The notes beneath the pieces were generated by a model that was not told the origin of the DNA, did no database searches, and saw nothing but the letters and a program-made list of their open reading frames with translations. Source: Candidatus Moraniibacteriota bacterium (lineage in GTDB: Bacteria; Patescibacteriota; Minisyncoccia; Moranbacterales; DUUL01). From it: a stretch of DNA of 64,000 nucleotides. The stretch's first letter is position 1; each line of letters begins with the position of its first letter. This document shows positions 3,967 through 46,756 of this stretch, one piece after another. The position numbers were made by a program, and so were the translations under genes. The DNA is taken from positions 38,954 to 102,953 of the forward strand of contig DUUL01000039.1 in the NCBI GenBank assembly GCA_012841575.1, given 5' to 3'.

Positions 3967-5064
3967 ATGCAATTTGCTCAAATCCATACCATCCCCGAAG
4001 TATTAGCGCTGGCTAAAATTATTGTTTTAGCAACTCTTTCTTTTCTGCTAGCTTTTTTCCTAACTCCTCTTTGGTCTAAGTTTCTTTATCGTTATAAAAT
4101 TGGAATTAAAATTAAAGACACTGCTGTTGATGGGGAAAAGTTAACTTATGTTGGTAAAATGCATGCGCACAAAGCAGGAACGCCAACAATGGGAGGAGTG
4201 ATCATCTGGGCTAGTATCTTGCTTTTAGCGTGGATTTCTTCTTGGTTAGCACCCTTTCTTTCGGAACAATTAAGAAATGTTTGGGTTAGTCGATTGGATT
4301 TTGTTTCTCGTTCTCAAACCTGGTTGCCCTTATTTGCATTAGCTTCAACTGCTATTCTGGGGTTGGTTGATGATTGGATGAGTGTTAAGCAGATTGGTGG
4401 GAATAAGGGAGGGGGAATGCGCTTTTTTTGGCGTTTGTTTTGGGTTTTTGTTATGGCTGCTTTTGGGGCCTATTGGTTTTACGAAAAACTAGGTTGGAGC
4501 AGCATCCATGTTCCTGGAGTAGATAGTTTTACAATCGGATTGTGGTATATCCCTCTTTTTATTTTCATAATTATTGCTACTGCTTTTTCTTCAAATGAAA
4601 CTGATGGTCTTGATGGTCTAAATGCGGGAATTCTAATTCAAGCCTTTGCCGCTTTCGCTATCATTTCTTTTGCTCAGGATAGAATGAATCTAGCAGCTTT
4701 CTGTGGAGTGACTGCGGGAGCACTTTTGGCTTTTTTGTGGTTTAATTTCTATCCTGCTCGATTTTTTATGGGTGATACAGGTGCTTTTTCTTTGGGAGCA
4801 ACTCTGGGAGTGGTGGCAATGTTGACTAATTCAGTGATAGCTCTTCCGTTGATTGTTTCCATTTACGTTTTAGAGTCACTTTCAGTAATTATTCAGTTAA
4901 CTAGTAAAAAGCTTTTCAAGAAAAAAGTTTTTTTAGCTGCTCCCTTGCATCATCACTTTGAAGCCAAGGGTTGGCCAGAAACTAAGGTAACAGTGCGGTT
5001 TTGGATCATTAACTTAGCATTTGCAATAATTGGTGTCTTGATTGCAATTATTGGCAGCGGTTGA
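3967..5064 (+). CDS. mraY: Phospho-N-acetylmuramoyl-pentapeptide transferase MraY
   Basis: PNPT family motifs GTPTMGG, LVDDWMSV, NETDGLDGL and FFMGDTG. The MraY-specific PLHHHFEAKGWPE...RFWII motif is present. Confidence 0.85.
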   Translation: MQFAQIHTIPEVLALAKIIVLATLSFLLAFFLTPLWSKFLYRYKIGIKIKDTAVDGEKLTYVGKMHAHKAGTPTMGGVIIWASILLLAWISSWLAPFLSEQLRNVWVSRLDFVSRSQTWLPLFALASTAILGLVDDWMSVKQIGGNKGGGMRFFWRLFWVFVMAAFGAYWFYEKLGWSSIHVPGVDSFTIGLWYIPLFIFIIIATAFSSNETDGLDGLNAGILIQAFAAFAIISFAQDRMNLAAFCGVTAGALLAFLWFNFYPARFFMGDTGAFSLGATLGVVAMLTNSVIALPLIVSIYVLESLSVIIQLTSKKLFKKKVFLAAPLHHHFEAKGWPETKVTVRFWIINLAFAIIGVLIAIIGSG

Positions 5065-5107
5065 TTTTTAATCCAATCTTAAGCCTTGATTTAAAGAATA
5101 ATTAAAG

Positions 5108-6298
5108 ATGAAACTTTTTTTAATTAAATTGGGCAAGGCCTTTACAGCTCTGAAAAGAGATGGTTTTTTTATTGGTGGCAAGAGAATTCTAGACTATCTT
5201 TTTCAATTTATTAGGACAATTTTGGGTTCTTTTCGATCGGGGGAGGCGTTGATTATTGCTAGTGGTGTTGGTGATAGCTCACATTATCGTGCTTTTAACG
5301 TGGCAGAGGAGTTAAATCTACAAGGAATAAAAACTGTAGTTACTATGCAAGACAACCCTTTGCTTTCAGTGTTGGTTAATAGGTTTCAAGTTTTCATTTT
5401 TCAACGCACAATTGTCACTCCAAAGGTCAAAAAAATGATTCATAAGATTAAGCAACAGAAAAAAGAAATTATTTTTGAAACAGACGACTTAGTTTTTGAC
5501 ACAAAGTTTATGCATGCAACAGATGGCTATAAAAATATGAGTTCCTTTGAAAAAATGCAATATACCAAGGGAGTGGGTGAGGAAATTTTAGCAGATCCCT
5601 ACGTAAAAACCTGCACCACTACCACAACTTACATCGCTAAAATTTTAAAAGCAAGAAAAAAGCAGGTTTTTATAGTGCCCAATAAGCTTAATCAAGCAGA
5701 GCTTAAAATTGCTAATGATTTATTAAAAAATCAGCAAAAGAGAAAAGACAATTTGGTAAAGTTGGGTTATTTTAGCGGAACAATGAGTCACAATCGAGAT
5801 TTTGCGACTATCACTGATGCTTTAATCAAATTATTCGAGCAATATCCACAGATGAGACTGGTTTTGGTGGGTCCTCTGGAGACAGAAAATAGACTTAATC
5901 AATTTAAGGATCGGATTGAAAGTTTACCTCTAGTTTCAAGAGAAAAGCACTATAATAATATTTTCCAAGTAGACATTAATTTAGCTCCATTAGAACTGGG
6001 AGATCCTTTTTGTGAAGCTAAGAGTGAGTTGAAATTTTTTGAAGCGGGAATTTTAGAAGTGCCAACGGTTGCGGTTAGCAACGAGACTTTTTCTGGTGCA
6101 ATTAAAGACGGAGTGGATGGATTTTTAGCAAAAAATACAAATGAATGGAGAGATAAGTTAGGACAGTTAATTGAAAACAAAGAACTGAGGAGGGAAATTG
6201 GACAAGCAGCTAGAAAGAAAGTTTTAGAAAAATACACTGTTAAAAATTCTAAAAACACTGTATACTATGACTACATTAACTCCTGTTTAAATAAATAA
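5108..6298 (+). CDS. GT-B fold glycosyltransferase (GT1/GT4-like C-terminal half), paralog of the internal domain of the 1515-aa protein
   Basis: The C-terminal EAGILEVPTVAVSNETFSGAIKDGVDGFLAKNTNEW is the GT-B donor-binding pattern. Clear collinear similarity to aa ~800-1185 of ORF 15713..20260 (VFIFQRT.VTP / VFIFYRTPITP, IIFETDDLVFD / VIFDIDDLVFD, LVLVGPLE / LTLVGPLT). Confidence 0.6.
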   Translation: MKLFLIKLGKAFTALKRDGFFIGGKRILDYLFQFIRTILGSFRSGEALIIASGVGDSSHYRAFNVAEELNLQGIKTVVTMQDNPLLSVLVNRFQVFIFQRTIVTPKVKKMIHKIKQQKKEIIFETDDLVFDTKFMHATDGYKNMSSFEKMQYTKGVGEEILADPYVKTCTTTTTYIAKILKARKKQVFIVPNKLNQAELKIANDLLKNQQKRKDNLVKLGYFSGTMSHNRDFATITDALIKLFEQYPQMRLVLVGPLETENRLNQFKDRIESLPLVSREKHYNNIFQVDINLAPLELGDPFCEAKSELKFFEAGILEVPTVAVSNETFSGAIKDGVDGFLAKNTNEWRDKLGQLIENKELRREIGQAARKKVLEKYTVKNSKNTVYYDYINSCLNK

Positions 6299-6318
6299 AG
6301 CAGGCAATTGTTTTTACT

Positions 6319-7101
6319 ATGAAAAAACAGCACGAAAACTACCAAGAGCTAATTTGGAGATTGGCAAAAACTGATTTTAAACTACGCTACCAAGGTTCAA
6401 TTCTGGGTTATTTTTGGGCTTTGCTTAAGCCAATGCTGACTTTTACGGTCTTATATTTTGTATTTTCTTCAATTTTCAATCCACGCAACTCTGATGGAGT
6501 GTCAACTTATTCGCTGGAATTATTAGTTGGTATTTTAATGTATAGCTTTTTTGCTGAAGGTACTGGCGCTGGCTTAAGCTCTTTGATGAGTAAAGCTCAG
6601 TTGGTAACAAAAATATATGTGCCTCGCTGGACAATTATTCTAGCTGCTACAATTAATTCTGCAATGATTTACTCAATGAATTTGCTGATAATCGTTGCAT
6701 TATTTGCGATTAAGGGCTTTCTACCAGAATGGCAGGCTGTAGCACTCTTCTTTTTGTTTTCCTTTTTCATTTATATTCTAATTGTATCTTTCAGTTTTAT
6801 TGCTGCGCCGCTTTTTGTTAAATTTCGTGATCTTTCAATGATCTGGGAAGTATTGTTGATGATTATTATGTATGCTTCGCCAATCATTTATCCTTTGGTT
6901 ACCTTGCCTGCAAAGTATCATCAGTTAATTCTATTAAACCCAGTAGCATTTATTGTGCACTTTACTAAAGAATCATTAATTCATGCACACTATGCTGATC
7001 CGTCACAATATCTAATCTTTATTATCATGCTAATTGCTTTCTTTGTGTCTAGTATTTTTATTTATCAAAAAATGATCAAGCGAGTTGCTGAAAATATGTA
7101 A
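6319..7101 (+). CDS. ABC-2 type polysaccharide/teichoic-acid exporter permease (Wzm/TagG-like)
   Basis: 260 aa with 6 predicted TM segments. N-terminal LRYQGSILGYFWALLKP is the ABC-2 signature region. It overlaps the downstream ATPase gene by 17 nt. Confidence 0.8.
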   Translation: MKKQHENYQELIWRLAKTDFKLRYQGSILGYFWALLKPMLTFTVLYFVFSSIFNPRNSDGVSTYSLELLVGILMYSFFAEGTGAGLSSLMSKAQLVTKIYVPRWTIILAATINSAMIYSMNLLIIVALFAIKGFLPEWQAVALFFLFSFFIYILIVSFSFIAAPLFVKFRDLSMIWEVLLMIIMYASPIIYPLVTLPAKYHQLILLNPVAFIVHFTKESLIHAHYADPSQYLIFIIMLIAFFVSSIFIYQKMIKRVAENM

Positions 7102-8437
7102 AAATATGAAAAAACCTATTGCCATTAAAGTAAATAATTTATCTAAGACCTTTGTAATTCCGCATGAGAAAATTACCTCTTTACGCTCAGCAGCAATTAC
7201 CGTTTTCAAGAAGAAGGGCTATGAGGAATTCGAGGCGTTGGATGATGTTTCTTTTGAAATAAAAAAAGGGGAATTTTTTGGAATCATTGGGCGTAATGGG
7301 AGTGGAAAATCAACCTTGCTGAAAATTTTAGCAGGAATCTACACTCCAGATCAGGGGAGTGTTAGAGTTGATGGTCTAATCTCACCATTTTTAGAGCTAG
7401 GGATTGGATTTAATCCAGAGCTTTCTGGGCGGGATAATATTTATCTTAATGCGACTGTCTTGGGAATGAGTGAGAAAGAAGTGGATGAGAAATTTGATGA
7501 GATTGTACACTTTTCAGAGCTGGGCAGATTTATTGATCAAAAATTGAAAAATTATTCTTCTGGAATGAGAGTGCGTTTAGCATTTTCTGTTTCAATTCAT
7601 GCCAACAGGGAAATTTTGCTGATGGATGAAGTTTTGGCGGTGGGAGATAATAACTTTCAATCAAAGTGTTTGGAAGAATTCAGAAAATATAAATCAATGG
7701 GCAGGACAGTGGTTTTAGTGACTCATGATATAAATGTAGTGCGTCGTTATTGCGACCGGGCAATGTTGTTGCGTCAGGGCAAGATTGTTTCTATTGGAGA
7801 TGTGAATAAGGTAACGGATCAGTATGTTTTTGATAATATGAGTGATGAAGAGAAGCGACTTTTGGAAGAAGAAAAATATCGTGTAAAAAAAGAAGCCGAA
7901 GAGAAGGCAAGAAGAGAGCGAGAGGATAAAATTAAACTAGCTAAAGCAAAGAAAGAACAACTTGCTTTAGAAAAAAAGAAGATTGAGGAAGAAAAAAAGG
8001 CTAAAGCAGAAAAAGAAAGGAATAGGTTTGTTGAAATTACAAAAGTAGAATTTTTAGGTAAAGAAGGGAGAGATAAGAAGGTTTTTGAGACAGGGGAAAA
8101 GGTTTCGATAAAAATCAAGTATAAAGTTATTAAGCCTTACAAGGAATTAAATTTTGGTGTCGGATTGCATGCTGTTTCGGGAGGTCAGATCTTTGGCTAT
8201 AATACACAAATGGATGATATTGAAGTTCAAGATAATAAAACAGAGTTAACACTAGCATTTGATTCTTTACCTCTTCTGGAGGGAGAATATTTTGTTAATA
8301 TTGCTTGCTGGGGTGCTGTTGAACAAAGTCACTATGACTTTAAGCCTAACTACGCAACCTTGAAGTTTTTTGCAAAGGGTAGAAAAGGAAAGTATAGAGG
8401 GTTTGTTGATATACCACATAAATGGCTAGATAGTTGA
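7085..8437 (+). CDS. ABC exporter ATP-binding protein (Wzt/TagH-like) with K/E-rich helical spacer and C-terminal beta-rich putative carbohydrate-binding domain
   Basis: Walker A GRNGSGKST, signature YSSGMRVRLAF, Walker B ILLMDEVLAVGD. Then an ~70-aa E/K/R-rich segment. Then a 135-aa domain resembling the Wzt C-terminal glycan-binding domain. Confidence 0.8.
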   Translation: MLKICKNMKKPIAIKVNNLSKTFVIPHEKITSLRSAAITVFKKKGYEEFEALDDVSFEIKKGEFFGIIGRNGSGKSTLLKILAGIYTPDQGSVRVDGLISPFLELGIGFNPELSGRDNIYLNATVLGMSEKEVDEKFDEIVHFSELGRFIDQKLKNYSSGMRVRLAFSVSIHANREILLMDEVLAVGDNNFQSKCLEEFRKYKSMGRTVVLVTHDINVVRRYCDRAMLLRQGKIVSIGDVNKVTDQYVFDNMSDEEKRLLEEEKYRVKKEAEEKARREREDKIKLAKAKKEQLALEKKKIEEEKKAKAEKERNRFVEITKVEFLGKEGRDKKVFETGEKVSIKIKYKVIKPYKELNFGVGLHAVSGGQIFGYNTQMDDIEVQDNKTELTLAFDSLPLLEGEYFVNIACWGAVEQSHYDFKPNYATLKFFAKGRKGKYRGFVDIPHKWLDS

Positions 8438-8453
8438 GTCAGAAAATTTTTTA

Positions 8454-18700: not shown

Positions 18701-20260
18701 TATATAAGTCGAACTGGAGAGGATGTTGTTTTAGGCTATTTTAGCGGTTCAAAAACGCATGATGATGATTTGAAGTTGATAGAAAATGTCTTGATTGAGA
18801 CTTTTGATAAATATCCAAAAGTAAAATTAACGTTGGTTGGACCTTTGACTTTAAGTGATAAGCTGAAGGCATATGAAGACAGAATCATTCGACATGATTT
18901 TGTTAGCTTCGAAAAATTGCCTGACTTAATTGCTCAAATTGATATTAATTTACTTCCATTAGCTCCGACAGAATTTAATCACGGAAAAAGTGAAATTAAA
19001 TACACTGAAGCGGCCTTAGTGAAACGACCAACTATTGCTAGTGTGACTAAGACAAACGCTTATGCTATCAAGGACGGTCAAACTGGATTTCTGGCTGAAA
19101 ATGAAAGTCAGTGGCAAGAGAAACTATTTCAGCTGATTGAAAATAAAAGTTTACGCATGAAATTAGCCAATCAAGCCTATCAAGATGTTATTAAACATTA
19201 CAACACTTTCAAAATTGGTCAGGGATTAGTTGATTTTATTAATGAAAATCGTCGAAAGAAGATAGTTTATGTTTCACCCAGTGTTAAAATTAGCGGTGGA
19301 GTGATGGTGGTTGGTCAGCATTTGAAAATGTTGCAGGCGGAAGGCTTTAATGTTTCCTTGGTTGCATGTGACAATGAGGAGAGACTTGATTGGATTGATG
19401 ATTTTTCTGTGCCAATTATTCCAATTAATTCATTTGAAAAAGCTGAGCTGAAGTTGTTAGATATTGCTGTGGCAACTCTTTGGTCAACCTTAATCTCAGT
19501 TCAGCGCTCAACTGCCCGAAAAAAATATTATTTTGTTCAAAATAAAGAGCATTTTTTCTATTCAAAAGAAGATAGTAATTTCGCACTTGCTAAAGCCACT
19601 TATTATGCAAGGAATGTTGAATTTATTACAATGTCACGGTGGTGTCAGGGGTGGCTGAAGGATGAATTTAATCAAGATGCTCGCTACATTCCCAACGGAA
19701 TTAGTGTCGACAATTTTCACAAGACCAAGCCACTTAAGCCAAAAGGTAGAAAAACTAGAATTTTAATCGAAGGCAATCCTGATGATAATTATAAGAATGT
19801 GGATGAGGCTTTTGAGATAGTTAAAAAATTAGACAGAAACAGTTTTGAGGTTTGGCTCATTAGCTATGGAGGAGAGCCTAAAAAATGGTACTCTTATGAT
19901 CAGTCTTTCAATAAGATTCCCTATAAAGAAATGAAAAAATATTACTCCAGTTGTGATATTCTATTGAAAACTTCACGCTTAGAGAGTTTTAGTTATCCAC
20001 CTTTAGAAATGATGGCGTGTGGCGGTGTTTGTGTGGTAGCAGAAAATGGAGGTAATGCTGAATATATTAAAGCTGAATTTAATGCTTTGACTTATCAGCT
20101 AGGGGATATTGAAACTGCTGTTCGGCAAATTGAAAGACTGAGAAGTGATGAGGAATTAAAAGAGAAGTTGAAAATTAATGGAATGAAAACAGTAAAAGAA
20201 AGAGCTTGGATTAATACACTAAAAGAATTAAAGCGCATTTATAACAATGGAGAGAATTAA
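15713..20260 (+). CDS. Giant (1515 aa) multi-domain glycosyltransferase: GT2-like + GT4 + coiled coil/FWK motif + GT-B (paralog of 5108..6298) + GT4
   Basis: aa 1-215 GT2-like (IIIPHHDRIDLL, FLNDDVE, QNGHEDVDLF). aa ~300-720 GT4 (EGFGRTLVEAM...GQNGFLYKPGD). aa 745-800 ERQLVDQISKNQIITNSKFWKMRNFYLKLKHWLTFVFLNPRKF. aa 800-1185 paralog of ORF 5108. aa 1195-1515 GT4 (ESFSYPPLEMMACGGVCV). Confidence 0.8.
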   Translation: MSKIKNFIADIIIPHHDRIDLLENCLSFIDQRKFNVIVESGGTFAQNCNRGAKKALTEKLIFLNDDVEIENSLLLEMCDKKSDIVGISQTIEHFPGVIFGLGMNFSREKLSISFSMNREELFFPSGFCFLIKKKCWEQLNGLDEVYQNGHEDVDLFMRAIEAKASFAFIDRPARHLHSQSAGRHDNHDRNTNLFWERWNELRIENLLRENKDRLVVDRGFFKWKNFERGLDESDFSQKFREFYLDKETAEIEFSDNIDLENELVQRNSFCVNFKDAKFTQLFKKLSLEKKFNEGVQVFLLMGDYGKFFKINPNLDQSYLDHYSNFSLWFAKKELLTASFISHSAGRYGAEKSLSNLLQEITQRGVLAQVIIPENGPIEEELLDLPIALEICETPWSTKQKDLVRVSILRKLVMEKAIESGRKIARFGADLVFSNTSVIDGGAWAAKMLNLPHIWRVLEYGRKEHSIDFIDTIENRIKFINQYSDKIIFSSEGLQNFYGKEIGFDKLAVVPEIFDLEEKGDESFTQLKTYFKNKKALKILVIGNLAEGKRQEEAVLAVSDLVKQGKEVELFLAGGHEDESYLTKIKELIAVNDLAKNVTLGGYCSEIRQLMQQADVVLSCSILEGFGRTLVEAMLQRKAVIGAASGGVKELIQEGQNGFLYKPGDYRELAEKLNYLIENSQEIALLGEKGYAFARERFQTKVTAEKAVNLLKEVKSQSKLTGPNQVTVDFLDDFSQETENSLAVLLEKERQLVDQISKNQIITNSKFWKMRNFYLKLKHWLTFVFLNPRKFFKKSIRLLKKAFNIFKEKGWRGFWKELKIFLAKNGILKPKAVITCKDFLIVSGCYLEMPQKYRCDFQKEQLEKHGLKGDFQFFTAINDAWLKYYDVFIFYRTPITPAVESFIKQAKKLNKLVIFDIDDLVFDENLVKGKHEFKAMNAEEKKIYLDGIRRHRKTMQLCDFGIASTETIAEYMRKIIPTVLINRNSVPDALLERSKKAYISRTGEDVVLGYFSGSKTHDDDLKLIENVLIETFDKYPKVKLTLVGPLTLSDKLKAYEDRIIRHDFVSFEKLPDLIAQIDINLLPLAPTEFNHGKSEIKYTEAALVKRPTIASVTKTNAYAIKDGQTGFLAENESQWQEKLFQLIENKSLRMKLANQAYQDVIKHYNTFKIGQGLVDFINENRRKKIVYVSPSVKISGGVMVVGQHLKMLQAEGFNVSLVACDNEERLDWIDDFSVPIIPINSFEKAELKLLDIAVATLWSTLISVQRSTARKKYYFVQNKEHFFYSKEDSNFALAKATYYARNVEFITMSRWCQGWLKDEFNQDARYIPNGISVDNFHKTKPLKPKGRKTRILIEGNPDDNYKNVDEAFEIVKKLDRNSFEVWLISYGGEPKKWYSYDQSFNKIPYKEMKKYYSSCDILLKTSRLESFSYPPLEMMACGGVCVVAENGGNAEYIKAEFNALTYQLGDIETAVRQIERLRSDEELKEKLKINGMKTVKERAWINTLKELKRIYNNGEN
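17995..18090 (+). repeat. Second copy of the ~90-nt FWK-motif block
   Basis: aattctaaattttggaaaatgcgtaatttttacctaaaattaaaacattggctgacttttgtttttctcaatccacgtaagttt, compared with 12700..12795. Confidence 0.65.
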
Positions 20261-21602
20261 ATTTTTCCTGAAAAAATTCAATAAACTTGAAAATATTTAT
20301 TTAGTTTTTGGCTTACTGGCAGGGTTGCTAATGGTTTTTGTAATGCCTCCCTTCGAGGTTCCGGATGAAAACTCACATTATTATAAATCCTGGGAGATCG
20401 CTGGTGGGAAAATTTTTTGTCAACCAGAGGAAGAAGAGAGTAATCTAATTCCTAAAACTGCTAGGGATTTACCTACTTACTATGAGTTAAAAAAAGAGAA
20501 GAAAGAGTTGGAAAATTTTAAATTTGCAAGAGTCAAAGAAGAAATTGCGACAAGCCCAGATTACACCTTAGTTGAGGGGACTCGTACTCAATTTTGTTCT
20601 GCTTCACCGCTTGGACACTTGCCACCAGCAGGAGTTTTGTTTATTAGTCGACAATTGGAGTTACCTTTTTCAGTCGCTTTTTATTTAGCAAGAATAGTCA
20701 ACTTATTAATTTCAGTTTTTATTATTTATTTTGCAATTAAAATCACGCCGCTTGCTAAAAAAATCTTTTTAATCATTGCTTTATTTCCGATTGTAATTCA
20801 AGAAACAGCCTCATTAAGTCACGATGCTTTTCATCTGTCCTTGAGTCTTTTGTTTATTGCCGTAATTTTGCATTTCTGTAGTCAACCAAAAGTATTTTTA
20901 ACCAAAAAAGACTACCTTAAAACACTATTCATTTCATTAGTCGCGCTTAATATTAAATATGGCTATTTCCCGTTGGCACTTTTGTTTCTTGCTCTTCCTG
21001 CTGGAAAATTTAAAAATAGGAAACAAGAGTGGCTCGCCAAATCAATATTTGTTACCATCAATGGCTTTTTCTTTTTATTTCTTTATAAATTATTTCAATT
21101 TCCCACTAAATGGCCGGAGGGAATCGATGTTTCTGCTCAAATGAAATTTGTTCTTTTGCATCCTTTAGAGTTTTTTTATACTGTAATTAATTCTCTAAAT
21201 TCAAGCTTGTATTTTTATTGGGAGAGTATGATTGGAGTTCCAGGTCCTTTTCGTGAACATTTTCCTGTTTTACTTTACGTCTTTATTTTTCTTGGACTTT
21301 TCTTTTTCGCTGTTAAGAGCAAAGAAAAGCTCATTCTCTCTAATTGGCAAAGGGTTATTTTTCTTTTCTCTGGGACAATAACTTTCTTCTTATTATTTTT
21401 TATTCTATACTTAATTTGGACACCAGTTGGAAAGGACTTGGTCAGAGGAATACAAGGTCGCTACCTAATCATCCCGTTTCTCGTAATTCTTCTTTCCTTT
21501 TATAACAAGCCAAACTTTTCAAAGAATAATTGGTGGCTGGTGGCATTTATTGGAATTTTTATGTTTTTCACCTTTAAGCATATTTTTTCCATTTATTACT
21601 AA
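20247..21602 (+). CDS. Polytopic membrane protein, probable GT-C-type glycosyltransferase partner (DUF2142/GtrC-like)
   Basis: 451 aa with ~11 hydrophobic segments and an N-terminal extracytoplasmic loop with acidic motif (PPFEVPDENSHYY). It overlaps the upstream GT by 14 nt and immediately precedes a GtrB-like gene. Confidence 0.5.
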   Translation: MERIKFFLKKFNKLENIYLVFGLLAGLLMVFVMPPFEVPDENSHYYKSWEIAGGKIFCQPEEEESNLIPKTARDLPTYYELKKEKKELENFKFARVKEEIATSPDYTLVEGTRTQFCSASPLGHLPPAGVLFISRQLELPFSVAFYLARIVNLLISVFIIYFAIKITPLAKKIFLIIALFPIVIQETASLSHDAFHLSLSLLFIAVILHFCSQPKVFLTKKDYLKTLFISLVALNIKYGYFPLALLFLALPAGKFKNRKQEWLAKSIFVTINGFFFLFLYKLFQFPTKWPEGIDVSAQMKFVLLHPLEFFYTVINSLNSSLYFYWESMIGVPGPFREHFPVLLYVFIFLGLFFFAVKSKEKLILSNWQRVIFLFSGTITFFLLFFILYLIWTPVGKDLVRGIQGRYLIIPFLVILLSFYNKPNFSKNNWWLVAFIGIFMFFTFKHIFSIYY

Positions 21603-21610
21603 ATGAAACT

Positions 21611-22522
21611 ATGAGTAAAATAGCAGTATTGATCCCTTGCTATAATGAAGAAAAAACCATCACTAAAGTGGTTAATGATTTTAAAAAGGAATTGCCTGAG
21701 GCAGAAATTTTTGTTTATGATAATAATTCCAAAGACAAGACTTATGAACTCGCCGAAAAAGCAGGCGCCAGAATGGGAAGAGAATTTAGGCAAGGCAAAG
21801 GATTCGTTGTTCAAAGAATGTTTCGTGAAATTGAGGCTGACTATTATGTTTTAGTTGATGGTGATGACACTTATCCAGCACAGGAAGTCAAGGATTTGCT
21901 TAATGTTGCTCAAAAATATGATGCGGATATGGTGGTTGGTGATCGACTCTCTAATGGTACTTATGCCAAAGAGAATAAGCGTGGTTTCCATAATTTTGGT
22001 AACTCTTTGGTTAAAAATTTAGTCAACTTATTTTTCAAGTCGAATTTAAAAGATATTATGAGTGGCTATCGAGTTTTTTCCCGAAATTTTGTTAAAAACT
22101 ATCCCATCTTAGTGGGTGGCTTTCAGTTAGAGACAGACATGACTATTTTTGCGTTGGACAAAAAGTTTCTTATCAAAGAGTTTGCGATTCAATACAGAGA
22201 TCGACCAGCAGGCAGTGTTTCTAAGTTAAATACATTTTCTGATGGATTGAGAGTGATTGTTATTATATTTAATCTTTTAAGGTATTATCGACCTTTGTTT
22301 TTCTTTTCAACAATTGCACTAGCTTTGTTTCTATTCAGTTTAGCCGTTGGATTGCCAGTGATTACAGAATATCTAGAAACTGATTATATCACTAAGATTC
22401 CTTCAGCGGTTTTAGCTTCTGGTGCCATGATTCTCTCGCTTATTTTCTTTGTTTGTGGTATTATCTTAGATGCAATTAAGCGCTTAGAAAGCGAAATAAT
22501 TCAATTAAAAATGAAACAATGA
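21611..22522 (+). CDS. Polyprenyl-phosphate glycosyltransferase (GtrB/DPM1/ArnC-like GT2 with two C-terminal TM helices)
   Basis: IAVLIPCYNEEKTI, YVLVDGDDTYP and MVVGDR motifs. Two TM helices at aa ~230-300. This is the typical GtrB architecture. Confidence 0.8.
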   Translation: MSKIAVLIPCYNEEKTITKVVNDFKKELPEAEIFVYDNNSKDKTYELAEKAGARMGREFRQGKGFVVQRMFREIEADYYVLVDGDDTYPAQEVKDLLNVAQKYDADMVVGDRLSNGTYAKENKRGFHNFGNSLVKNLVNLFFKSNLKDIMSGYRVFSRNFVKNYPILVGGFQLETDMTIFALDKKFLIKEFAIQYRDRPAGSVSKLNTFSDGLRVIVIIFNLLRYYRPLFFFSTIALALFLFSLAVGLPVITEYLETDYITKIPSAVLASGAMILSLIFFVCGIILDAIKRLESEIIQLKMKQ

Positions 22523-22962
22523 AAAAAATTATTCAAAAAACTCAAGGTTTGGCTTTTTTAATCCTAGCTACTTTTTTTCTAGTGGGATGTTCAGCCAAAG
22601 AAAGCAGTATTAAAATTGAAAACAATCAGGAAGATTTAGGTACATCTTCCAGCGAACTTTCAGTAACAGCCAATGATTTAGATGGTTTGCAAGAGCCTTC
22701 AGATGAAACACAACAAGATTTAGATAATTCGACTGACAACTCTGGAGATCTTGCGCCAAAACAAGATTTTGCTTCAATTAAAAACCAATTAGACAAAGAA
22801 GACTCAACCAAAAAAAACGAGGACACTGAAAAGTCAAAATCAAATACAAAAAACGAAATGAATGAAACAAATGATGGAGTTGATATTAAGGCTGAGGCAG
22901 ACAAGTGCATTAAGGATGGAGGAGTTTACAACACTTTTGCTCGACAGTGCTTTAAAAATTAA
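22519..22962 (+). CDS. Acidic lipoprotein
   Basis: Signal peptide with lipobox FLVGC|S. D/E/S/N-rich low-complexity body. C-terminal CIKDGGVYNTFARQCFKN. Confidence 0.6.
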   Translation: MKKIIQKTQGLAFLILATFFLVGCSAKESSIKIENNQEDLGTSSSELSVTANDLDGLQEPSDETQQDLDNSTDNSGDLAPKQDFASIKNQLDKEDSTKKNEDTEKSKSNTKNEMNETNDGVDIKAEADKCIKDGGVYNTFARQCFKN

Positions 22963-23012: not shown

Positions 23013-24494
23013 ATGAAATTTTTGACTAGGATTATTCTGGGAATATTTTTGCTTGGAGTTAGCGCCTCCAATGTTTTTGCTTTTTCTTCAGAAGACTTGT
23101 CAAAAGTGTATCGTTTTTATAGTCGTAATGATCAAGTTCACTTTTATACCAACTCTGAAGATGAGAAGAACTTTGTTGCGGCAACAAATCCTCCAGAACA
23201 ATGGTGGTGTGAGGGGGTGGCTTGGCAGGCATTTAACAATCAGAATAAAGGTCAGTTGCCAGTCCATCGTTTTTATAGTCAAAACTATCGTGCCCATTTT
23301 TACACTATCAGTGAGGAGGAAAAGCAATATATTATTAATACCTACAGTAAAGAGACTTGGCAGTATGAAGGGGTTGCTTACTATGCTTTTAAAGAAAGAC
23401 ATCCTGGAACTAGTCCAATCCATCGTTTTCACTCTCAAGTTTCCGGAAAACACTTTTTTACTATCTCAGAACCTGAAAAAGAAAATCTTATCAATGGGGC
23501 TTATCCCGAAGCGAGGTATAACTACGAAGGAATTGCTTGGTACACTCTTCCACCAGCAGGAGATGGGGATTGCAAAATAAAGACCACTTATCTAGGTGGT
23601 GAAATTACTGTTGGTCTTTTGGAGATGACAAGAAATCAACTTAAAGATGAAGGCTTTCGCTTAAAAGCGAATAGAGACTATTCCATTAAAGATAGATCTG
23701 GAAAGATTATTGCAGCTAGAGTTAGTGCTAACTCAGAAACAAGAGTTAAGTATGATAATGATGGAAGATTGAGGGTTTATAATTCAATTCCAGAAACAAT
23801 AGTAGACAGGGAAGTTCGTTTTGAAGAGTTTAGTGGTAATAACATTGATATAGTTTTTGAAATTAGACGCCCTGAAATGACTTACAATAAATATCGAGGG
23901 AAAATGAAACTTCGTTATAGCAAAACTTCAAAAAATATTTGGGCGATTGAAACTCTTCCTCTTGAGCAATACTTGTGGGGTTTTGGTGAAATTACTGGCA
24001 CGGGTGATGATGATTATGACAAAACCATGTTAACAGCGGCTAGAACTTATGCTTATTGGAAAATGCTCTATTCAACAAAGTACGCATCAGAAGGATTTAA
24101 GGTGGTGCCAACTCCAGCTAATCAAATTTACCGAGGTTATGTCTACGAAAAAAAGTATGGTGATATTCGTAAGGCGGCAGAAGAAACAAGAGGTCAGATT
24201 ATAAAACATAAAAGTGGTGACATTGCTTTGTCTCCTTATTCTTCTTGGACTGATGGGCGAACTAGGAGTTTTGAAGAGCGTTGGGGTTCAAAAGACTATC
24301 CTTGGTGCAAATCTGTCAAAGACCCTTATGGTAAACACCCGACTAAAAGCACTTCTCAATTAGAATCTGAAGGTAATCATATGGTTGGAATTAGTGCTCA
24401 CGGAGCACTCAATTTAGCAGGGAAGCACAACTGGAAATGGCAAGATATCATCAAATACTATCTTTCAAACGTCTCAATTGTGAGTATTTACTAA
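23013..24494 (+). CDS. Secreted SpoIID/LytB-domain protein with three N-terminal ~45-aa RFY repeats
   Basis: Signal peptide. Repeats VYRFYSRNDQVHFYT.., VHRFYSQNYRAHFYTISEEEKQYI..WQYEGVAYYAF, IHRFHSQVSGKHFFTISEPEKENL..YEGIAWY. The C-terminal ~300 aa has the SpoIID-like pattern (LEQYLWGFGEI..., LTAARTYAYWK, VVPTPANQIYRGY). Confidence 0.7.
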   Translation: MKFLTRIILGIFLLGVSASNVFAFSSEDLSKVYRFYSRNDQVHFYTNSEDEKNFVAATNPPEQWWCEGVAWQAFNNQNKGQLPVHRFYSQNYRAHFYTISEEEKQYIINTYSKETWQYEGVAYYAFKERHPGTSPIHRFHSQVSGKHFFTISEPEKENLINGAYPEARYNYEGIAWYTLPPAGDGDCKIKTTYLGGEITVGLLEMTRNQLKDEGFRLKANRDYSIKDRSGKIIAARVSANSETRVKYDNDGRLRVYNSIPETIVDREVRFEEFSGNNIDIVFEIRRPEMTYNKYRGKMKLRYSKTSKNIWAIETLPLEQYLWGFGEITGTGDDDYDKTMLTAARTYAYWKMLYSTKYASEGFKVVPTPANQIYRGYVYEKKYGDIRKAAEETRGQIIKHKSGDIALSPYSSWTDGRTRSFEERWGSKDYPWCKSVKDPYGKHPTKSTSQLESEGNHMVGISAHGALNLAGKHNWKWQDIIKYYLSNVSIVSIY

Positions 24495-24500: not shown

Positions 24501-26474
24501 ATGTCAATAAAAAAAACAAAACTAATTCTACCTCTTTTGACGCTGAGCATTTTTCTTATTTTTCCCTTTTTAAAAGTGAGCGCCAGTCCTTTTGGTGGAA
24601 TGATCAATGTGTTGATTGAATGTACTTGCAACAATAGCACTTTGATATTTGTTGGTGATCCGGTTGGCGGAGAATTCATTAAAGCGCCGGGAACAATAGC
24701 ACATGCTTGCGAGCCAATGCTACAGGGGGAGTGGATTTTGGGCGAGTATAGCGGAGAGGTGTCTTGTGAAGTAATGACTTCTATGGGTTGTATTGAAATT
24801 AAACGAGCGCCTAAAATTGATTTTTATGGCACTTCTCCAAATGACTGCATTGGCGATGGCTCTTCTGGTTCAGGTAGCTCAACTAATCTTGGAGGCTTGC
24901 TTGGCGGTAGTAATAATTTTTTCGGTCAAAATTCAATTGATCGTTTTTTCTCTAACTCAAATTCAAACCACTTTTTCACAATGTCTCAATTAGAGATATT
25001 TAGCATTCTACAAGGACAAATAGGTGGTGACTGGAACTTTGAAGGCTTTGCTTTTAATGGCTTTCAAGGAATGAATGGGAATAATTTTAACATCACTTCT
25101 AGCCAAATTCTTGGTAGCATTAAAGATGCAATTACTAATGAAATTAAAAATAAACTTAAGCAAACTGTTTTAAATGGTGTCAATAGCAATGTTTTTGATA
25201 GCATAATTGATCCCGCTATTAATCAGGTTTTTGGTAAAATTGAAGACATAATCAAGGTTGATATGAACTTGGGAGGCAACTTAAATACAGATGTTTTAGG
25301 TCAAGTCTCTGCCGTATTAAATGTTAATATTGGGGAAATAATTAATCAAGGGAGTATTGATCAATTAATTAACGATATCGGAGGTAAAATTCAAGATGAG
25401 GTATCAAAAAGAATTGCGAATGAAATATCAAGCCGTATTAAAGTCAATATCCCGAGCGAATTAGAGGCTATTTTGCTAGGAAAGGTTGAGCCAATAACAG
25501 CAGAGCAAATAATTGAAGACATTGTTAGGAAGGTTGAGGATAAGATTTTGGGAGAAATCAACAAGGCAGTGGATAATAGCGTCATTGGGGAGCTAGAGAG
25601 AATCCTAAATGATATGCAAGGTATTGCTATTACACCAGAGAGTGCACAGGAGATATTGGATGATTTGCTAGTTTCGATGGGAAATAATGTGTTGGATGGA
25701 ATTGTTGGTAATGTTCAAGGTCAATTTGCGGGCAATTTAATTCAAGTAGTTAGAGAAGAAGTTGTTGCAGAACTACCATCTTTGATAGAAGCCAAGCTTG
25801 ATGAAAAAATTAGTCAAGCAATCCTTGACAATGTAATGGATGGAGTATTGAAAGAATTATCCAATCAGCTGGAGAATGAGGTTAATCAAAGATTGAAGCC
25901 CGTTTTCCGTTTTTATTCTTCTGCGTTAAATGCACACTTTTACACAATCAGTGAGTTGGAAAAAATGTCAATTATTAAAAACTATTCAGCTGAAGATTGG
26001 TTCTATGAAGGAATAGCTTGGTATGCTTTCAATACTCAGAGCGGACAGCAATACATTGACATTGCAAATAAAATTAGAGATAAGATCTCTAATGGACTAG
26101 GCTCTCGAGTGGATGATGCTTTAAGAGGTGAGGTGAGTGCCGAAATTATTTCAGCTTTAGAAAAAAAGTTAACCGGCTTATTGCTAGACGAAGTGAGAGA
26201 GGAAGTTGATAGAGTTTTAGATGAGCACCTTTCCAATTCTACTGCCAGGGATCTAGCCAATGTTATTGTAAATCAAGCAGATAAAGAATTAAATGACTGG
26301 ATTAAAACTAATGTTAATGACAAATTAAAGCCCGTATTTCGGTTTTATTCATCTAAACACACCACTCATTTTTACACTATAAGTCCAGTTGAAAGAGATT
26401 TTATTATTAAAAACTATTCTGCCGAGGAATGGCTTTATGAAGGAATTGCTTGGTACACTTCAAATAAAAAATAA
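24501..26474 (+). CDS. Secreted protein: N-terminal 7-Cys domain, Gly/Ser linker, long amphipathic helical repeats, 2-3 RFY repeats
   Basis: Signal peptide. ECTCNNS...HACEP...SCEV...GCIE...NDC. GSSGSGSS linker. A degenerate repeat (RFFSNSNSNHFFTMSQLE..DWNFEGFAF). Two C-terminal copies of PVFRFYSS...HFYTIS...NYSAE.W.YEGIAWY, each preceded by a ~90-aa helical segment ending NxxLK. Confidence 0.6.
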   Translation: MSIKKTKLILPLLTLSIFLIFPFLKVSASPFGGMINVLIECTCNNSTLIFVGDPVGGEFIKAPGTIAHACEPMLQGEWILGEYSGEVSCEVMTSMGCIEIKRAPKIDFYGTSPNDCIGDGSSGSGSSTNLGGLLGGSNNFFGQNSIDRFFSNSNSNHFFTMSQLEIFSILQGQIGGDWNFEGFAFNGFQGMNGNNFNITSSQILGSIKDAITNEIKNKLKQTVLNGVNSNVFDSIIDPAINQVFGKIEDIIKVDMNLGGNLNTDVLGQVSAVLNVNIGEIINQGSIDQLINDIGGKIQDEVSKRIANEISSRIKVNIPSELEAILLGKVEPITAEQIIEDIVRKVEDKILGEINKAVDNSVIGELERILNDMQGIAITPESAQEILDDLLVSMGNNVLDGIVGNVQGQFAGNLIQVVREEVVAELPSLIEAKLDEKISQAILDNVMDGVLKELSNQLENEVNQRLKPVFRFYSSALNAHFYTISELEKMSIIKNYSAEDWFYEGIAWYAFNTQSGQQYIDIANKIRDKISNGLGSRVDDALRGEVSAEIISALEKKLTGLLLDEVREEVDRVLDEHLSNSTARDLANVIVNQADKELNDWIKTNVNDKLKPVFRFYSSKHTTHFYTISPVERDFIIKNYSAEEWLYEGIAWYTSNKK

Positions 26475-26492: not shown

Positions 26493-27005
26493 ATGGACAA
26501 GAAAATATTTTTCATTATTCCTTTTTTCATTGTATTAGCAGGATTACTTTTTTGGGCATATACCATTAAGAAAAGTCGTGAACTGCCAATTGACTCTGAG
26601 CAGCAGCAACAAATTTCCATTGAACAGCAAGAGAGACTGATTAATCCATCAGAGAGTGTTTATGACTCTACCACAGAAAACTCAGAAGAGGGTGAGGATA
26701 TTGTCAGAAAAACCAATTATAATATAAAAAAAGAAGACTGTGAAAATGAATGTGCTAACTTTAAGATGGAGGAGGCACTAAGACATTGTCAAGAAGTTTG
26801 TGGGTTAATTCCAGTGGCTAAGGTTGAAGGGGAGGACGCTTGCTCTGAAAAAGAAGGTGTTGCAAAAGATTATTGTTTAAGAGATAAGGCAGTAACTGCA
26901 AAAGACTTTAAGGGCTGCGATTTAATTGTCGATAAAAATATTCATCAGCAATGTAAAAATCGAGTCTTAGAAGATATTATGGATGAATCTTCAATGGAGT
27001 GGTAA
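26493..27005 (+). CDS. Small membrane-anchored Cys-rich protein
   Basis: N-terminal TM anchor (IFFIIPFFIVLAGLLFWAY). Acidic linker. Eight Cys in CENEC...C.EVC...C...C...C....QCKN. Confidence 0.5.
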   Translation: MDKKIFFIIPFFIVLAGLLFWAYTIKKSRELPIDSEQQQQISIEQQERLINPSESVYDSTTENSEEGEDIVRKTNYNIKKEDCENECANFKMEEALRHCQEVCGLIPVAKVEGEDACSEKEGVAKDYCLRDKAVTAKDFKGCDLIVDKNIHQQCKNRVLEDIMDESSMEW

Positions 27006-27024: not shown

Positions 27025-28854
27025 ATGAAAAAACTAAACAGATTTTTTATTAAACACTTCCTATTATTTGTCGGAGTTTTTGTTTTTGCTGGTGGTTGCA
27101 TGGCTAATGAAAAGGAGGAGGTTTCAGTTGCTCAAAATCAAAATTATCCCCCTAGAGAAATAGTCATTCAATTCAAAAAAGAACTCTTAAGCCTTGAAGG
27201 TGAAGACAATCTTCAAAAAGCACAAGAAAAAATTAGTCAATTTAATGGCAAATTGTTACACAAAAATGAGATCAGCAATGTTGCTATTTTTCAATTAGAT
27301 CAAGCTACTTTTGAAAAAAAGAGTATTAAGGAAGCGCAAAAATTTTTGGATGAAGAAATTGCTGAACTTAAAAAACTGCCATCAGTAAAATTTGCAGAGC
27401 CAAATTATCAAAGACGACCACTTTCCATTAAAACAAACGATCCTCTGAGAAATAAACTTTGGGGATTAGACAATAAAGGACAAGAAATACTCGGGTTTGC
27501 TGGCACTGTAGACGCAGATATTGATGCGCCTGAAGCCTGGGTTATTTCCAGTGGCCTAGTTGATATTCCTGTTGCAATAATTGACACTGGAATTAATTAT
27601 AATCATCCAGATCTTGTTAGTAATCTTTGGAACGGCTCTGATTGTTTAGACAAAAATGGAGTTTATTTGGGTGGCTGTCTCCACGGTTATGATTTTGAAA
27701 AGGACGATCCAGATCCAATGATGGAAGACAATGAACACGGAACCTTAGTTGCTGGCATCATTGGTGCAACTCCCAATAACAACATTGGGATTTTAGGTGT
27801 TGCTCCAAGAGCCAAGATTATGAGTCTAAAAAGTAGTTTGACTATTTATGAATTAGTAAATGCAATTGACTTTATAATCGCTAATGACGTAAAAATAATT
27901 AATGCTAGTTATGGCGGAGAAGAGTTTTCTCAAATCGAATATCAGGCTATTAAAAAATTTGGGGATCACGGAGGTATTTTAGTGGCTGGTGCTGGCAATA
28001 ATAACACTAACAATGATTCCTCTCACCACTATCCCTCTGACTATAATCTAAATAATATTATTTCCGTGGCAGCTACTAATCAATCTGATCAATTGTCCTC
28101 TTTTTCTAATTATGGAAAAATTTCGGTGGACGTAGCAGCCCCTGGGGAAAATATCTTAACCACTTCAGGGCAAAACAATTCTTTTGTCTATATTTCTGGC
28201 ACATCAATGGCAGCACCTTATGTTTCCGGTCTAACAGCGTTATTGTGGAGCTATAAGCCAAATTTAAGTGCTCAACAAGTGAGACAGCTTATTTTAGAGT
28301 CAGGAGATAGTCTACCAACCCTTGCCAATAAAACTTCGACAGGCAAGCGAATTAATGCTTATAAAACACTAGATAATCCTTTTGCTCAAACAAAGGAGTT
28401 ATATCGTTTTTATAGTCAAAATCATCAAGCACATTTTTACACGATTAGTAAAGCGGAGCGTGATCACATTATTGCTACTTATCCAAGAGAAGAATGGAAC
28501 TATGAGGGAATTGCCTGGAAAGGCTTTGAGAATAAAGTGTCTGGCTTAAAACTTTTGCCAGTTTATCGTTTTTATAGCCTAGCTTATCGCAAACATTTTT
28601 TCACAATTTCAGAAGCAGAGAAAAATAAAATCTTTAGTGGAGCTTATCCAGAAGCACAATGGAACTATGAAGGAGTTGCTTGGTATGCTTATCCAACAAT
28701 TAATACGGGACTTTCACCCATCTATCGTTTTTATAATCAAAATCATCAAGCACATTTTTACACCATTAGCAAAACAGAGCGTGACCACATTATTACTACT
28801 TATCCAAGAGAAGAATGGAATTATGAGGGCATTGCTTATTACTCACTGAAATAA
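27025..28854 (+). CDS. Secreted subtilisin-like serine protease (peptidase S8) with three C-terminal RFY repeats
   Basis: Signal peptide. Catalytic triad contexts AIIDTGI (Asp), HGTLVAGIIG (His), GTSMAAPYVSG (Ser). C-terminal repeats LYRFYSQNHQAHFYTISKAERDHI..WNYEGIAW, VYRFYSLAYRKHFFTISEAEKNKI..WNYEGVAWY, IYRFYNQNHQAHFYTISKTERDHI..WNYEGIAYY. Confidence 0.85.
   Translation: MKKLNRFFIKHFLLFVGVFVFAGGCMANEKEEVSVAQNQNYPPREIVIQFKKELLSLEGEDNLQKAQEKISQFNGKLLHKNEISNVAIFQLDQATFEKKSIKEAQKFLDEEIAELKKLPSVKFAEPNYQRRPLSIKTNDPLRNKLWGLDNKGQEILGFAGTVDADIDAPEAWVISSGLVDIPVAIIDTGINYNHPDLVSNLWNGSDCLDKNGVYLGGCLHGYDFEKDDPDPMMEDNEHGTLVAGIIGATPNNNIGILGVAPRAKIMSLKSSLTIYELVNAIDFIIANDVKIINASYGGEEFSQIEYQAIKKFGDHGGILVAGAGNNNTNNDSSHHYPSDYNLNNIISVAATNQSDQLSSFSNYGKISVDVAAPGENILTTSGQNNSFVYISGTSMAAPYVSGLTALLWSYKPNLSAQQVRQLILESGDSLPTLANKTSTGKRINAYKTLDNPFAQTKELYRFYSQNHQAHFYTISKAERDHIIATYPREEWNYEGIAWKGFENKVSGLKLLPVYRFYSLAYRKHFFTISEAEKNKIFSGAYPEAQWNYEGVAWYAYPTINTGLSPIYRFYNQNHQAHFYTISKTERDHIITTYPREEWNYEGIAYYSLK
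28402..28836 (+). repeat. Two ~115-nt direct repeats, ~90% identical, about 320 nt apart inside the protease gene
   Basis: tatcgtttttatagtcaaaatcatcaagcacatttttacacgattagtaaagcggagcgtgatcac... compared with tatcgtttttataatcaaaatcatcaagcacatttttacaccattagcaaaacagagcgtgaccac... Confidence 0.8.
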
Positions 28855-29021: not shown

Positions 29022-30126
29022 ATGCTTTTAGCTGATATTAAAAGGGGAGTTAAAGAATTAAAAAATAAAATCGTTCAGTTGAACGACTGTCTTTGACTGG
29101 CAGGAGATTAGAAAAAAAATTACAGAAATAGAAAAAGAAACTACTAATCAAAATGATTGGTCTGATTATGCTAGATTAGGACAACTTGCAAAGGAAAAAG
29201 AAGATTTAAAAAATGAGTTAAAGGAGTGGGAGAGTTTAGTTCAAGAGCAAAAGGAGTTGAGTTTATTCATTAACTCCATCAATGAAAATGTGGACGACCT
29301 TCAATTAGCAGAGATTCAGTTGAAAGATTTGCTTGGAAGAATTAAACATTTTGAACAAAAGAAATTCTTTCAAGGTAAATATGACAAATCTAATGCAATT
29401 CTATCTTTGCAAGCAGGCGCCGGAGGAACAGATGCTCAAGACTGGGCAGAGATGCTTTTGCGTATGTACCTGCGTTATGCTGAAAGGAAAAATTGGTCAA
29501 TTAAAATTTTACACCAGTCACGCGGACTAGAAGCGGGTATCAAAAACACTACCATAGAAATTCAAGGTCAAAATACTTATGGATTTTTAAAAAGAGAGGG
29601 AGGGGTTCATCGCTTAGTTCGACTTTCTCCATTTAATGCAGATAGTCTTCGCCAAACTTCTTTTGCACTGGTGGAGGTGTTGCCTATACTAGAAAGACAA
29701 GTTGAATTAAAAATTAACCCTGCAGATTTAAGAATTGATACCTTTCGAGCCTCTGGTGCGGGAGGACAGCATGTTAATAAGACTGACAGTGCAGTGCGTA
29801 TTACTCACTTGCCAACTGGTCTAATGGTGGCTTGTCAAAATGAACGCTCTCAATTGCAAAACAAAGAAAAGGCAATGAAAATCTTAGAATCAAAATTGGT
29901 GCAGTTAATGGAACAAAAGCAAGTTAAAGAATTAGAAGACCTTAAGGGTGAGCAAAGAAAAATTGAGTGGGGAAGCCAAATTCGCTCTTACGTTTTACAC
30001 CCCTATAAAATGCTTAAGGACCACCGCACTGAATTTCAAACCTCAGCTGTGGAAAAAGTTTTAGAGGGAGAGTTAGATGAATTAATTGAAGACAATTTAA
30101 ATAAGATTGGGATGATCAAACATTGA
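29022..30126 (+). CDS. prfB: Peptide chain release factor 2 with programmed +1 ribosomal frameshift. Frame 0 is 29022..29096 and the +1 frame continues from 29095.
   Basis: Frame 0 reads MLLADIKRGVKELKNKIVQLNDCL then TGA. Shifting +1 at CTT-TGA-C gives DWQEIRKK...KELSLFINSINENVDDL, continuous with ORF 29257..30126. RF2-specific SPF (LVRLSPFNAD) and GGQ (GAGGQHVNKT) motifs are present. Confidence 0.85.
29090..29096 (+). promoter_or_regulatory. RF2 autoregulatory +1 frameshift site CTT TGA C
   Basis: Heptamer cttTGAc read directly, 24 codons after the ATG. There is no obvious AGGGGG-type internal Shine-Dalgarno 3 nt upstream. The upstream sequence is aacgactgt. Confidence 0.75.
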
Positions 30127-45103: not shown

Positions 45104-45110
45104 TAAAAAA

Positions 45111-45137
45111 ACGAAACCGAGCTAACCTCGGTTTCGT
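45111..45137. terminator. Hairpin between convergent pyrG and rpmA (11-bp stem ACGAAACCGAG / CTCGGTTTCGT, 5-nt loop)
   Basis: Perfect inverted repeat flanked by an A7 run on + (T7 on the minus strand). The U-run is strong for rpmA and weak for pyrG. Confidence 0.55.
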
Positions 45138-45178
45138 TGTATAAAAAATGTAAAAAGACCTAAATGATTATCAAAAAA

Positions 45179-45451: not shown

Positions 45452-45520
45452 TGCTCTAAGTAATTATTTTTAAACTAACTGATTGAAAACTATCCTTCAT
45501 TCTAACTAAAAATAACACTC

Positions 45521-46745: not shown

Positions 46746-46756
46746 GTCTGATAAAA

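Follow-up and report, generated by a model that had tools for sequence, protein, structure and literature searches.

A DUF5648 triplet split by long tetrad-repeat inserts in a predicted six-cysteine-headed surface protein of Candidatus Moranbacteria

At positions 24501..26474 (+) of a 64,000-nucleotide stretch of Candidatus Moraniibacteriota DNA (contig DUUL01000039.1, positions 38,954 to 102,953; referred to here as the window) is a gene whose 657-residue product is identical in sequence to NCBI HHX58670.1, 'hypothetical protein GX706_02800 [Candidatus Moranbacteria bacterium]'. The original prediction for this locus, made from the letters of the window, described a secreted protein with a Cys-rich N-terminal domain, a Gly/Ser hinge and duplicated amphipathic-helix units each ending in an RFY repeat. 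The open reading frame is confirmed, and its product is composed of a signal peptide, a six-cysteine head, a linker and three DUF5648 blades, between which are inserted two long segments carrying a hydrophobic residue at every fourth position. This long form is a singleton, present on one metagenome contig only. Judged from its sequence, it is a secreted, non-enzymatic surface protein of Candidatus Moranbacteria, a lineage of the candidate phyla radiation (CPR).

The signal peptide (residues 1–28; 24501..24584, +) comprises a positive n-region (KK-K), a hydrophobic core and a VSA|S cleavage motif. Read by eye, the N-terminus, MSIKKTKLILPLLTLSIFLIFPFLKVSA|SPFGG, is a typical Sec signal, which agrees with the secretion originally claimed; cleavage is predicted at VSA28|S29, so that the mature chain would begin at Ser29. 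The same signal peptide and ...VSA|SPFGG junction are found in a 273-residue orthologue, P0002, and an equivalent signal peptide precedes a third protein with the same head, P0087. Beyond the head is a Gly/Ser/Asn-rich linker (residues 118–147; 24852..24941, +), recognized by composition (residues 119–150 are 25% G, 22% S and 12% N) and corresponding to the Gly/Ser hinge of the original prediction. The chain ends with blade 3, in ...EGIAWYTSNKK, and carries neither an LPXTG sorting signal nor the C-terminal hydrophobic segment of covalently anchored adhesins. No catalytic family was matched in Pfam or NCBIfam, in keeping with the earlier statement that no catalytic motif could be recognized; Pfam scans likewise returned no MACPF or other toxin or pore-forming family, and no solved structure was matched by sequence.

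The RFY repeat belongs to Pfam family DUF5648 (PF18885), which matches the protein in three stretches (E = 5e-26; 91.9 bits, gathering score 25). Published models of this family show a (β3α)3 propeller of three β-α blades with a common aromatic core, and a role in glycan recognition has been proposed for it (PMC12853789, PMC11299179, bioRxiv 10.64898/2026.04.26.720912). In Bacteroidales BSAP toxins directed at O-antigen glycans, it makes up the C-terminal domain that binds the receptor (PMC12853789); in GH70 enzymes it is a (β3α)3 auxiliary domain (PMC11299179), and a GH25 endolysin carries it as a putative binder of the cell wall (bioRxiv 10.64898/2026.04.26.720912). Blade 2 (residues 466–511; 25896..26033, +) and blade 3 (residues 611–657 and the stop codon; 26331..26474, +), both assigned by PF18885, blade 3 with the best stretch of the match (residues 588–655), are the two full RFY repeats seen at the outset. 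They are 71% identical to each other and next closest to blade 3 of P0002 (54–57%; 54% for blade 2). Directly following the linker is blade 1 (residues 148–190; 24942..25070, +; RFFSNSNSNHFFTMS...DWNFEGFAF), the degenerate repeat that had been noticed behind the head. Blade 1 was assigned by alignment to other blades: it is 37% identical to blade 2 and 34% to blade 3, and it lines up with the first blade of P0002 and of the neighbouring genes' triplets, retaining R-F, H-F-x-T, S, E, W and E-G. Exactly three blades are present, each with the secondary structure E-E-H-E in an AlphaFold2 model, in which blade 2 reaches block-mean values of 69–80 for the predicted local distance difference test (pLDDT).

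Since the S8 protease encoded nearby covers positions 2–133 of the 134-position DUF5648 profile in a single stretch, one Pfam DUF5648 'domain' comprises three blades. Blade counts were made for the 150 top-ranked DUF5648 representatives of a set of 1.84 billion proteins searched exhaustively with HMMER; 124 of the 150 have three blades and 11 have six, with a median blade spacing of 52 residues. The spacings in the 657-residue protein are 322 and 144 residues, so its blades are not contiguous as those of DUF5648 otherwise are. Gaps longer than about 130 residues in other proteins proved in each case to be a false motif hit or to lie between two complete triplets (gaps of about 100–105 residues, roughly twice the blade spacing, were left out of this one-by-one inspection). 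Only the 657-residue protein has an interrupted single triplet, the triplets of all 148 other inspected relatives being contiguous. In a MAFFT alignment it matches P0002 and both neighbours' triplets blade to blade, with just two large gaps. The three repeats are therefore most likely the three blades of one split DUF5648 domain and not the ends of 'helix + RFY' units, an architecture that had been predicted here and whose helical parts P0002 lacks. The family is known; the architecture is a new variant of it.

Inserted between blades 1 and 2 is insert 1 (residues 191–465, about 275 residues; 25071..25895, +), and between blades 2 and 3 is insert 2 (residues 512–610, about 99 residues; 26034..26330, +). 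Both are acidic, rich in I, L, V, N, D, E and G and poor in aromatic residues, and both are built as a tetrad repeat, (h-x-x-x)n. The middle of the protein, first taken to be aperiodic, in fact follows a strict hydrophobic period of 4.0 residues. Over residues 253–466, I, L, V, M or F occupies 50 of 54 positions of one column (power 429 at period 4.0, where the highest of 2000 shuffles reaches 95; z 36.5). The corresponding counts are 21 of 24 for residues 515–610 (power 204, maximum of 2000 shuffles 83; z 16.7) and 12 of 13 for residues 201–252 (power 155; z 11.8). These residues make up 0–46% of the remaining three columns, and 4–31% in the runs at 253–466 and 515–610. Neither of these two runs contains a register slip, and between residues 201–252 and 253–466 the register is offset by two residues. 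Power at 3.6 and 3.5 residues is several-fold lower in most 28-residue windows of the inserts; with the peak at 4.0, the canonical period of a coiled coil or amphipathic helix (3.5–3.67) does not describe them, and the label 'amphipathic-helix units' does not hold. No other protein encoded in the window approaches this periodicity (235, against 105 for the next-highest). The hydrophobic column kept at every fourth position is the main unexplained feature of the protein.

TRF found no DNA tandem repeat in the gene, and no protein period longer than four stands out in the inserts other than multiples of 4; a recent origin of the tetrad period in a DNA tandem repeat was rejected on these two grounds. 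Insert 2 resembles insert 1 no more than tetrad composition alone gives. An internal duplication of about 130 residues had been proposed for the C-terminus, and it survives in part: the aligned segments are 40% identical, and duplication is demonstrable only for the blade and about ten residues upstream of it (NVNxxLKPVF), the helical part being at chance level. Homology of these helical halves was rejected, 447 of 1000 column-preserving shuffles (4-residue columns) reaching the observed score.

No relatives of the inserts were found. Insert 1 alone has no homologue at E ≤ 1, and a word-indexed search with residues 29–466 returned only the 657-residue protein itself and P0002. The best 150 of 3516 matches in an exhaustive phmmer search consist of DUF5648 hits, the query itself and head matches (P0002 and P0087) only, and IMG/VR holds no match for the inserts. 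Three family matches were rejected as below their cut-offs and probably due to composition and period: DUF445 (20.2 bits against a cut-off of 33.8), YpjP and UFL1. A match of insert 1 to residues 910–1000 of coronavirus spike chain 8fez_A (E = 0.67) is not significant. With DUF445 as its best match, the central region shows no confident homology to an enzyme or transporter component, as the original prediction would have it. AlphaFold2 draws the inserts as helices of about 15–57 residues at a pLDDT of about 40, and at such values 'helical' is a prediction rather than a finding.

The head (residues 29–117; 24585..24851, +) contains six cysteines (41, 43, 70, 89, 97 and 116), not the seven first reported, and the motifs listed in that report also sum to six. 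It represents a small family absent from Pfam, with three members: the 657-residue protein, P0002 and P0087. Common to all three heads are the six cysteines and 37 invariant columns, including PFGG, CxC.N, GG.FIK, ACE, WILG and ID.YGTSP.DC. None of the three sequences matches Pfam at E ≤ 10, which includes the NTR and TIMP profiles; a head profile matched no PDB sequence, and no head relatives were found in GTDB genome contigs or in IMG/VR. A search of JGI metagenome contigs yielded the P0087 locus only. Nothing scored in a word-indexed search with the head profile, probably owing to failure of the word index on so short a query, and a Foldseek search with the P0002 model against PDB and BFVD gave nothing significant. 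The head is predicted to be an OB-like β-barrel, probably with three disulfides, and we regard the six-cysteine head as a new small family of CPR bacteria. P0087 joins this head to a dockerin-like EF-hand module; combined in this way with two different anchoring modules, the head fits the part of a displayed functional end.

P0087 is encoded within a CPR locus resembling type IV secretion systems (contig L005, 1360–10501), together with PrgI, a VirB4/TraG-like ATPase and a CAAX protease. Also in this locus are a 283-residue type IV secretion pilin with a Cys-rich tail and an unannotated 1049-residue protein ending in a hydrophobic segment.

The orthologue P0002 is composed of the signal peptide, a head 71% identical to that of the 657-residue protein, a Ser-rich linker shorter than that of the long form, and three contiguous blades. 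This 273-residue form has 18 cluster members, of which the 15 listed are together spread over more than 40 contigs. In four related CPR contigs (L001–L004) it fills the same slot, in the order 1511-residue glycosyltransferase, DUF2142 protein, small protein, DUF5648-SpoIID protein, P0002, 178-residue membrane/Cys-rich protein, S8-DUF5648 protein, prfB, enolase and PfkB. The flanking orthologues are 38–83% identical to those of the window, or 61–83% when the small lipoprotein-like gene is set aside. Comparison of the window with L001 at the DNA level shows similarity over the head to about residue 117 and again at blade 3: a segment of about 70% identity starts at about 26340 in the window and 8688 in L001, the start of blade 3 in both genes. 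The stretch between the head and blade 3 has been remodelled. Because the syntenic orthologue has no inserts, the inserts are derived and lineage-specific; because blades 2 and 3 are closest to each other, blade 2 appears to be a copy of blade 3 and about ten residues upstream of it.

Blade number also differs in the S8 protease orthologue of these contigs, which has one DUF5648 blade in L001–L003 (502 residues) and at least three in L004 (9401–10909 in L001, 9401–11182 in L004). L001 and L004 are 99.98% identical up to the first blade of this protein. Blades 1 and 3 of the S8 orthologue are nearly identical, which points to assembly collapse or inter-blade recombination.

In the window, the gene is the second in a row of four with gaps of 6–19 nucleotides. 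Six nucleotides upstream, a gene encodes a secreted protein that joins a SpoIID/LytB-like domain to a DUF5648 triplet at its N-terminus (23013..24494, +; DUF5648 6.7e-35, SpoIID 3.7e-8; TIGR02669 4e-19, below its cut-off); this protein is 83% identical to its L001 orthologue. Downstream are a 170-residue protein that has a membrane helix at its N-terminus and a C-terminal half rich in Cys, read from its sequence and matching no Pfam family (26493..27005, +; 61% identical to the 178-residue protein in the matching slot of L001), and an S8 subtilase with a C-terminal DUF5648 triplet (27025..28854, +; Peptidase_S8 2.1e-56, DUF5648 4.4e-39). A scan for promoters and terminators around the row was uninformative.

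Directly upstream of the row, and on the same strand, Pfam scans outline a cluster for a polysaccharide exported by an ATP-binding cassette (ABC) transporter (3967..22522, +). It encodes an initiating glycosyltransferase, a GT4 glycosyltransferase, Wzm, Wzt with a Wzt_C domain, methyltransferases, several GT2 glycosyltransferases, an epimerase, a DUF2142 protein and a membrane-anchored GT2. One of its proteins, of 1515 residues, combines one GT2-like and three GT4-type (Glycos_transf_1) domains, and the genes for this glycosyltransferase and the DUF2142 protein adjoin each other in L001 too. The Wzm/Wzt cluster is complete and is a candidate source of the DUF5648 ligand; the C-terminal carbohydrate-binding domain of Wzt and the methyltransferases suggest a capped, ABC-exported surface polymer, as in the synthesis of O9a-type O-antigens.

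Between the DUF2142 gene and the row of four are two further genes. The first, for the membrane-anchored GT2 (303 residues; 21611–22522, +), has no counterpart in syntenic L001. The second encodes a 147-residue lipoprotein-like protein (22519–22962, +) with an LVGC lipobox, an acidic low-complexity middle and a C-terminal Cys pair; its L001 counterpart is 38% identical, and it has no family assignment. This protein and the 170-residue one downstream are both small envelope proteins conserved between the two loci. Beyond the row, prfB (release factor 2; 29023–30126, +) has a classical programmed +1 frameshift, a short frame from ATG 29023 running into CTT TGA C at 29090–29096 and the +1 frame continuing into the long frame (listed from TTG 29257). 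Further along the window, cumulative GC skew peaks near 44 kb and gene orientation changes from all-plus to all-minus, converging at 46745/46757; the region of about 44000–46760 resembles a replication terminus.

Taken together, these features are best read as those of a wall-glycan-anchored display protein, exported by the Sec pathway and non-catalytic, a reading to which we give an even chance. The mature chain would consist of a head of 90 residues, a flexible Gly/Ser linker and one DUF5648 module, into which the blades at residues 148–190, 466–511 and 611–657 would pack as a single three-bladed (β3α)3 unit. This unit would bind a surface polysaccharide, most probably the polymer of the upstream Wzm/Wzt cluster, and so keep the protein on the cell envelope without a covalent bond; the S8 protease and the SpoIID-like wall enzyme would be held likewise through their own DUF5648 modules. 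The best-supported role for DUF5648 is that of a module shared among the proteins of the row that anchors them non-covalently on, or targets them to, a surface glycan, and the cell's own polymer is its most economical ligand. The head would serve as the displayed, ligand-binding end. The inserts at residues 191–465 and 512–610 would be lineage-specific additions, probably helical. If the blades are packed in cis, each insert has to run out of the module and back into it, and the one-in-four hydrophobic ridge suggests tilted-helix packing or self-association rather than a canonical coiled coil. The earlier description of the protein as an adhesin or scaffold rather than an enzyme finds some support, given that no catalytic family is matched and that the repeats are a probable glycan- or cell-wall-binding module; the arrangement of helix and RFY units on which it was framed does not.

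Several points weigh against this reading. What the literature says of DUF5648 derives from models and association rather than from an experimental structure or ligand, and the position beside the glycan cluster is circumstantial evidence. With an identity of 28–37% to the other blades, blade 1 is degenerate. The full-chain AlphaFold2 model, which did yield the helices in the inserts and the E-E-H-E blades, is poor overall (mean pLDDT 45.5; predicted template modelling score, pTM, 0.25), and packing of the blades in cis is something that we infer. Owing to the period of 4.0, which is that of neither a canonical amphipathic helix nor a coiled coil, about 57% of the protein is left with no assigned fold, and because the long form comes from a single contig, no conservation backs a function for the inserts.

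The same gene row could instead be a tool kit directed at other cells, in which the DUF5648 modules recognize a glycan of the partner or prey cell of an episymbiotic CPR bacterium and deliver the wall-lytic enzyme, the protease and the head/insert protein, the last as an adhesin or membrane-active factor. Three different effector-like domains do share one targeting module in a single row, and the third member of the head family lies within the type IV secretion-like locus with its PrgI, VirB4/TraG-like and pilin genes. The C-terminal DUF5648 domain of BSAP toxins, moreover, has been proposed to recognize the O-antigen of the target cell (PMC12853789). Against this, the row directly follows the cell's own polysaccharide cluster, and the Pfam scans revealed no pore-forming or toxin family. 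SpoIID/LytB-type proteins, furthermore, usually act on and remodel the cell's own wall. We consider a host-directed role unlikely.

More doubtful is a reading that centres on the inserts, in which the 24- and 54-unit h-x-x-x runs between the propeller blades would be an undescribed structural element, either a non-canonical helical assembly (tilted-ridge bundles or a steep right-handed supercoil) or some other regular fold, that makes the glycan-binding anchor extended and self-associating, with the head as a new CPR extracellular binding family.

Two further explanations seem to us improbable, and to a like degree. In one, blades of different chains would complete each other, with the tetrad segments as spacers in a surface lattice or fibre, the 'scaffold' of the original prediction. 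Inter-blade spacers of about 275 and 99 residues are unique among the 150 DUF5648 proteins, and an unbroken hydrophobic ridge along the inserts would promote self-association; set against these are the normal contiguous triplet of P0002, which is clearly the same gene, and a blade count of exactly three, as in most relatives. In the other, the inserts would be cryptically simple sequence that has expanded in one lineage, neutrally or by degeneration, or else the product of a chimeric assembly, and the working protein would be the head with DUF5648. The long form is indeed a singleton on one contig beside the 18-member cluster of the 273-residue form, the searches made found no homologue for the inserts, and composition and period suffice to explain their internal similarity. 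An open frame of 1974 nucleotides in a genome of 35% G+C is, however, unlikely to persist without selection; the DNA carries no tandem repeat, the retention of the hydrophobic column at 50 of 54 positions argues for constraint, and the inserts are placed exactly at blade boundaries.

That the head is an NTR/TIMP-like protease-binding module regulating the neighbouring S8 or other surface proteases is very improbable, and we treat the idea as a lead only: no NTR or TIMP profile responds even at the permissive Pfam threshold, generic OB folds (RecO, RPA, STN1 and CsaA) score equally well against a model of only moderate confidence, TIMPs inhibit metalloproteases and not subtilases and need for this the free N-terminal Cys of their CxC motif, whereas the CxC of the head lies 12 residues inside the mature chain (Ser29 start, first Cys 41) with no free N-terminal Cys, and the P0087 locus has no S8 protease.

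CPR bacteria live attached to other cells, and few of their surface proteins have been assigned a function. One DUF5648 module shared by three exported proteins beside a polysaccharide cluster offers a concrete and testable hypothesis for how proteins are held on the envelope or targeted to a partner. The protein is of interest chiefly for its tetrad repeat and its split propeller. A triplet split by large inserts is a natural experiment on what a small pseudo-threefold domain tolerates, and the strict hydrophobic repeat, one residue in four, is unusual enough as a sequence pattern for its structure to be worth having. As the long form is found on a single metagenome contig and its function is putative, its general importance is modest.

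The head has no sequence relationship to the NTR/TIMP-type OB folds (meteorin NTR, 7tlh; agrin NtA, 1jb3; PCOLCE NTR, 1uap), is shorter (about 90 residues against 124–131) and does not carry its CxC at the mature N-terminus, and its fold match to them is no better than to generic OB folds.

For the inserts, the nearest likenesses are two helical repeats. One is a hydrophobic zipper of four tetrad layers in the transmembrane trimer of the SARS-CoV-2 spike (PMC8043453); the other is the glycine repeat, (xxxG)n, of FliH/YscL, with a period of 4 and a variable repeat number (PMC2674601). As in these, one residue type recurs at every fourth position, which on a helix gives a ridge tilted by about 17 degrees that packs on other helices. 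The runs of those proteins are short, whereas the inserts have 54 and 24 consecutive in-register tetrads in a soluble, acidic, extracellular segment whose helicity is only predicted. We know of no other run of 24–54 tetrad units.

The blades resemble the DUF5648 modules of BSAP-2 and BSAP-3, of GH70 enzymes and of the GH25 endolysin in their signature (RFY...HFYT.S..E......W.YEG.A.Y), in their number of three and in the secreted nature of the carrier, and the protein adjoins enzymes bearing the same module, as in the known settings of DUF5648. It differs from other DUF5648 proteins in having its blades about 275 and 99 residues apart and blade 1 degenerate, and in pairing them with a new Cys-rich head instead of an enzyme or MACPF domain; the MACPF domain that accompanies DUF5648 in BSAP-type toxins was not found in it. 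P0002, by comparison, is widespread, lacks the inserts and has a blade 1 that is not degenerate. SLH domains, choline-binding repeats and CWB2 are non-covalent wall anchors common to several secreted proteins of one cell. They have no sequence or fold relationship to DUF5648, whose ligand is a candidate only, but the arrangement is alike: different exported proteins of one locus carry a common repeat module beside genes for a surface polymer.

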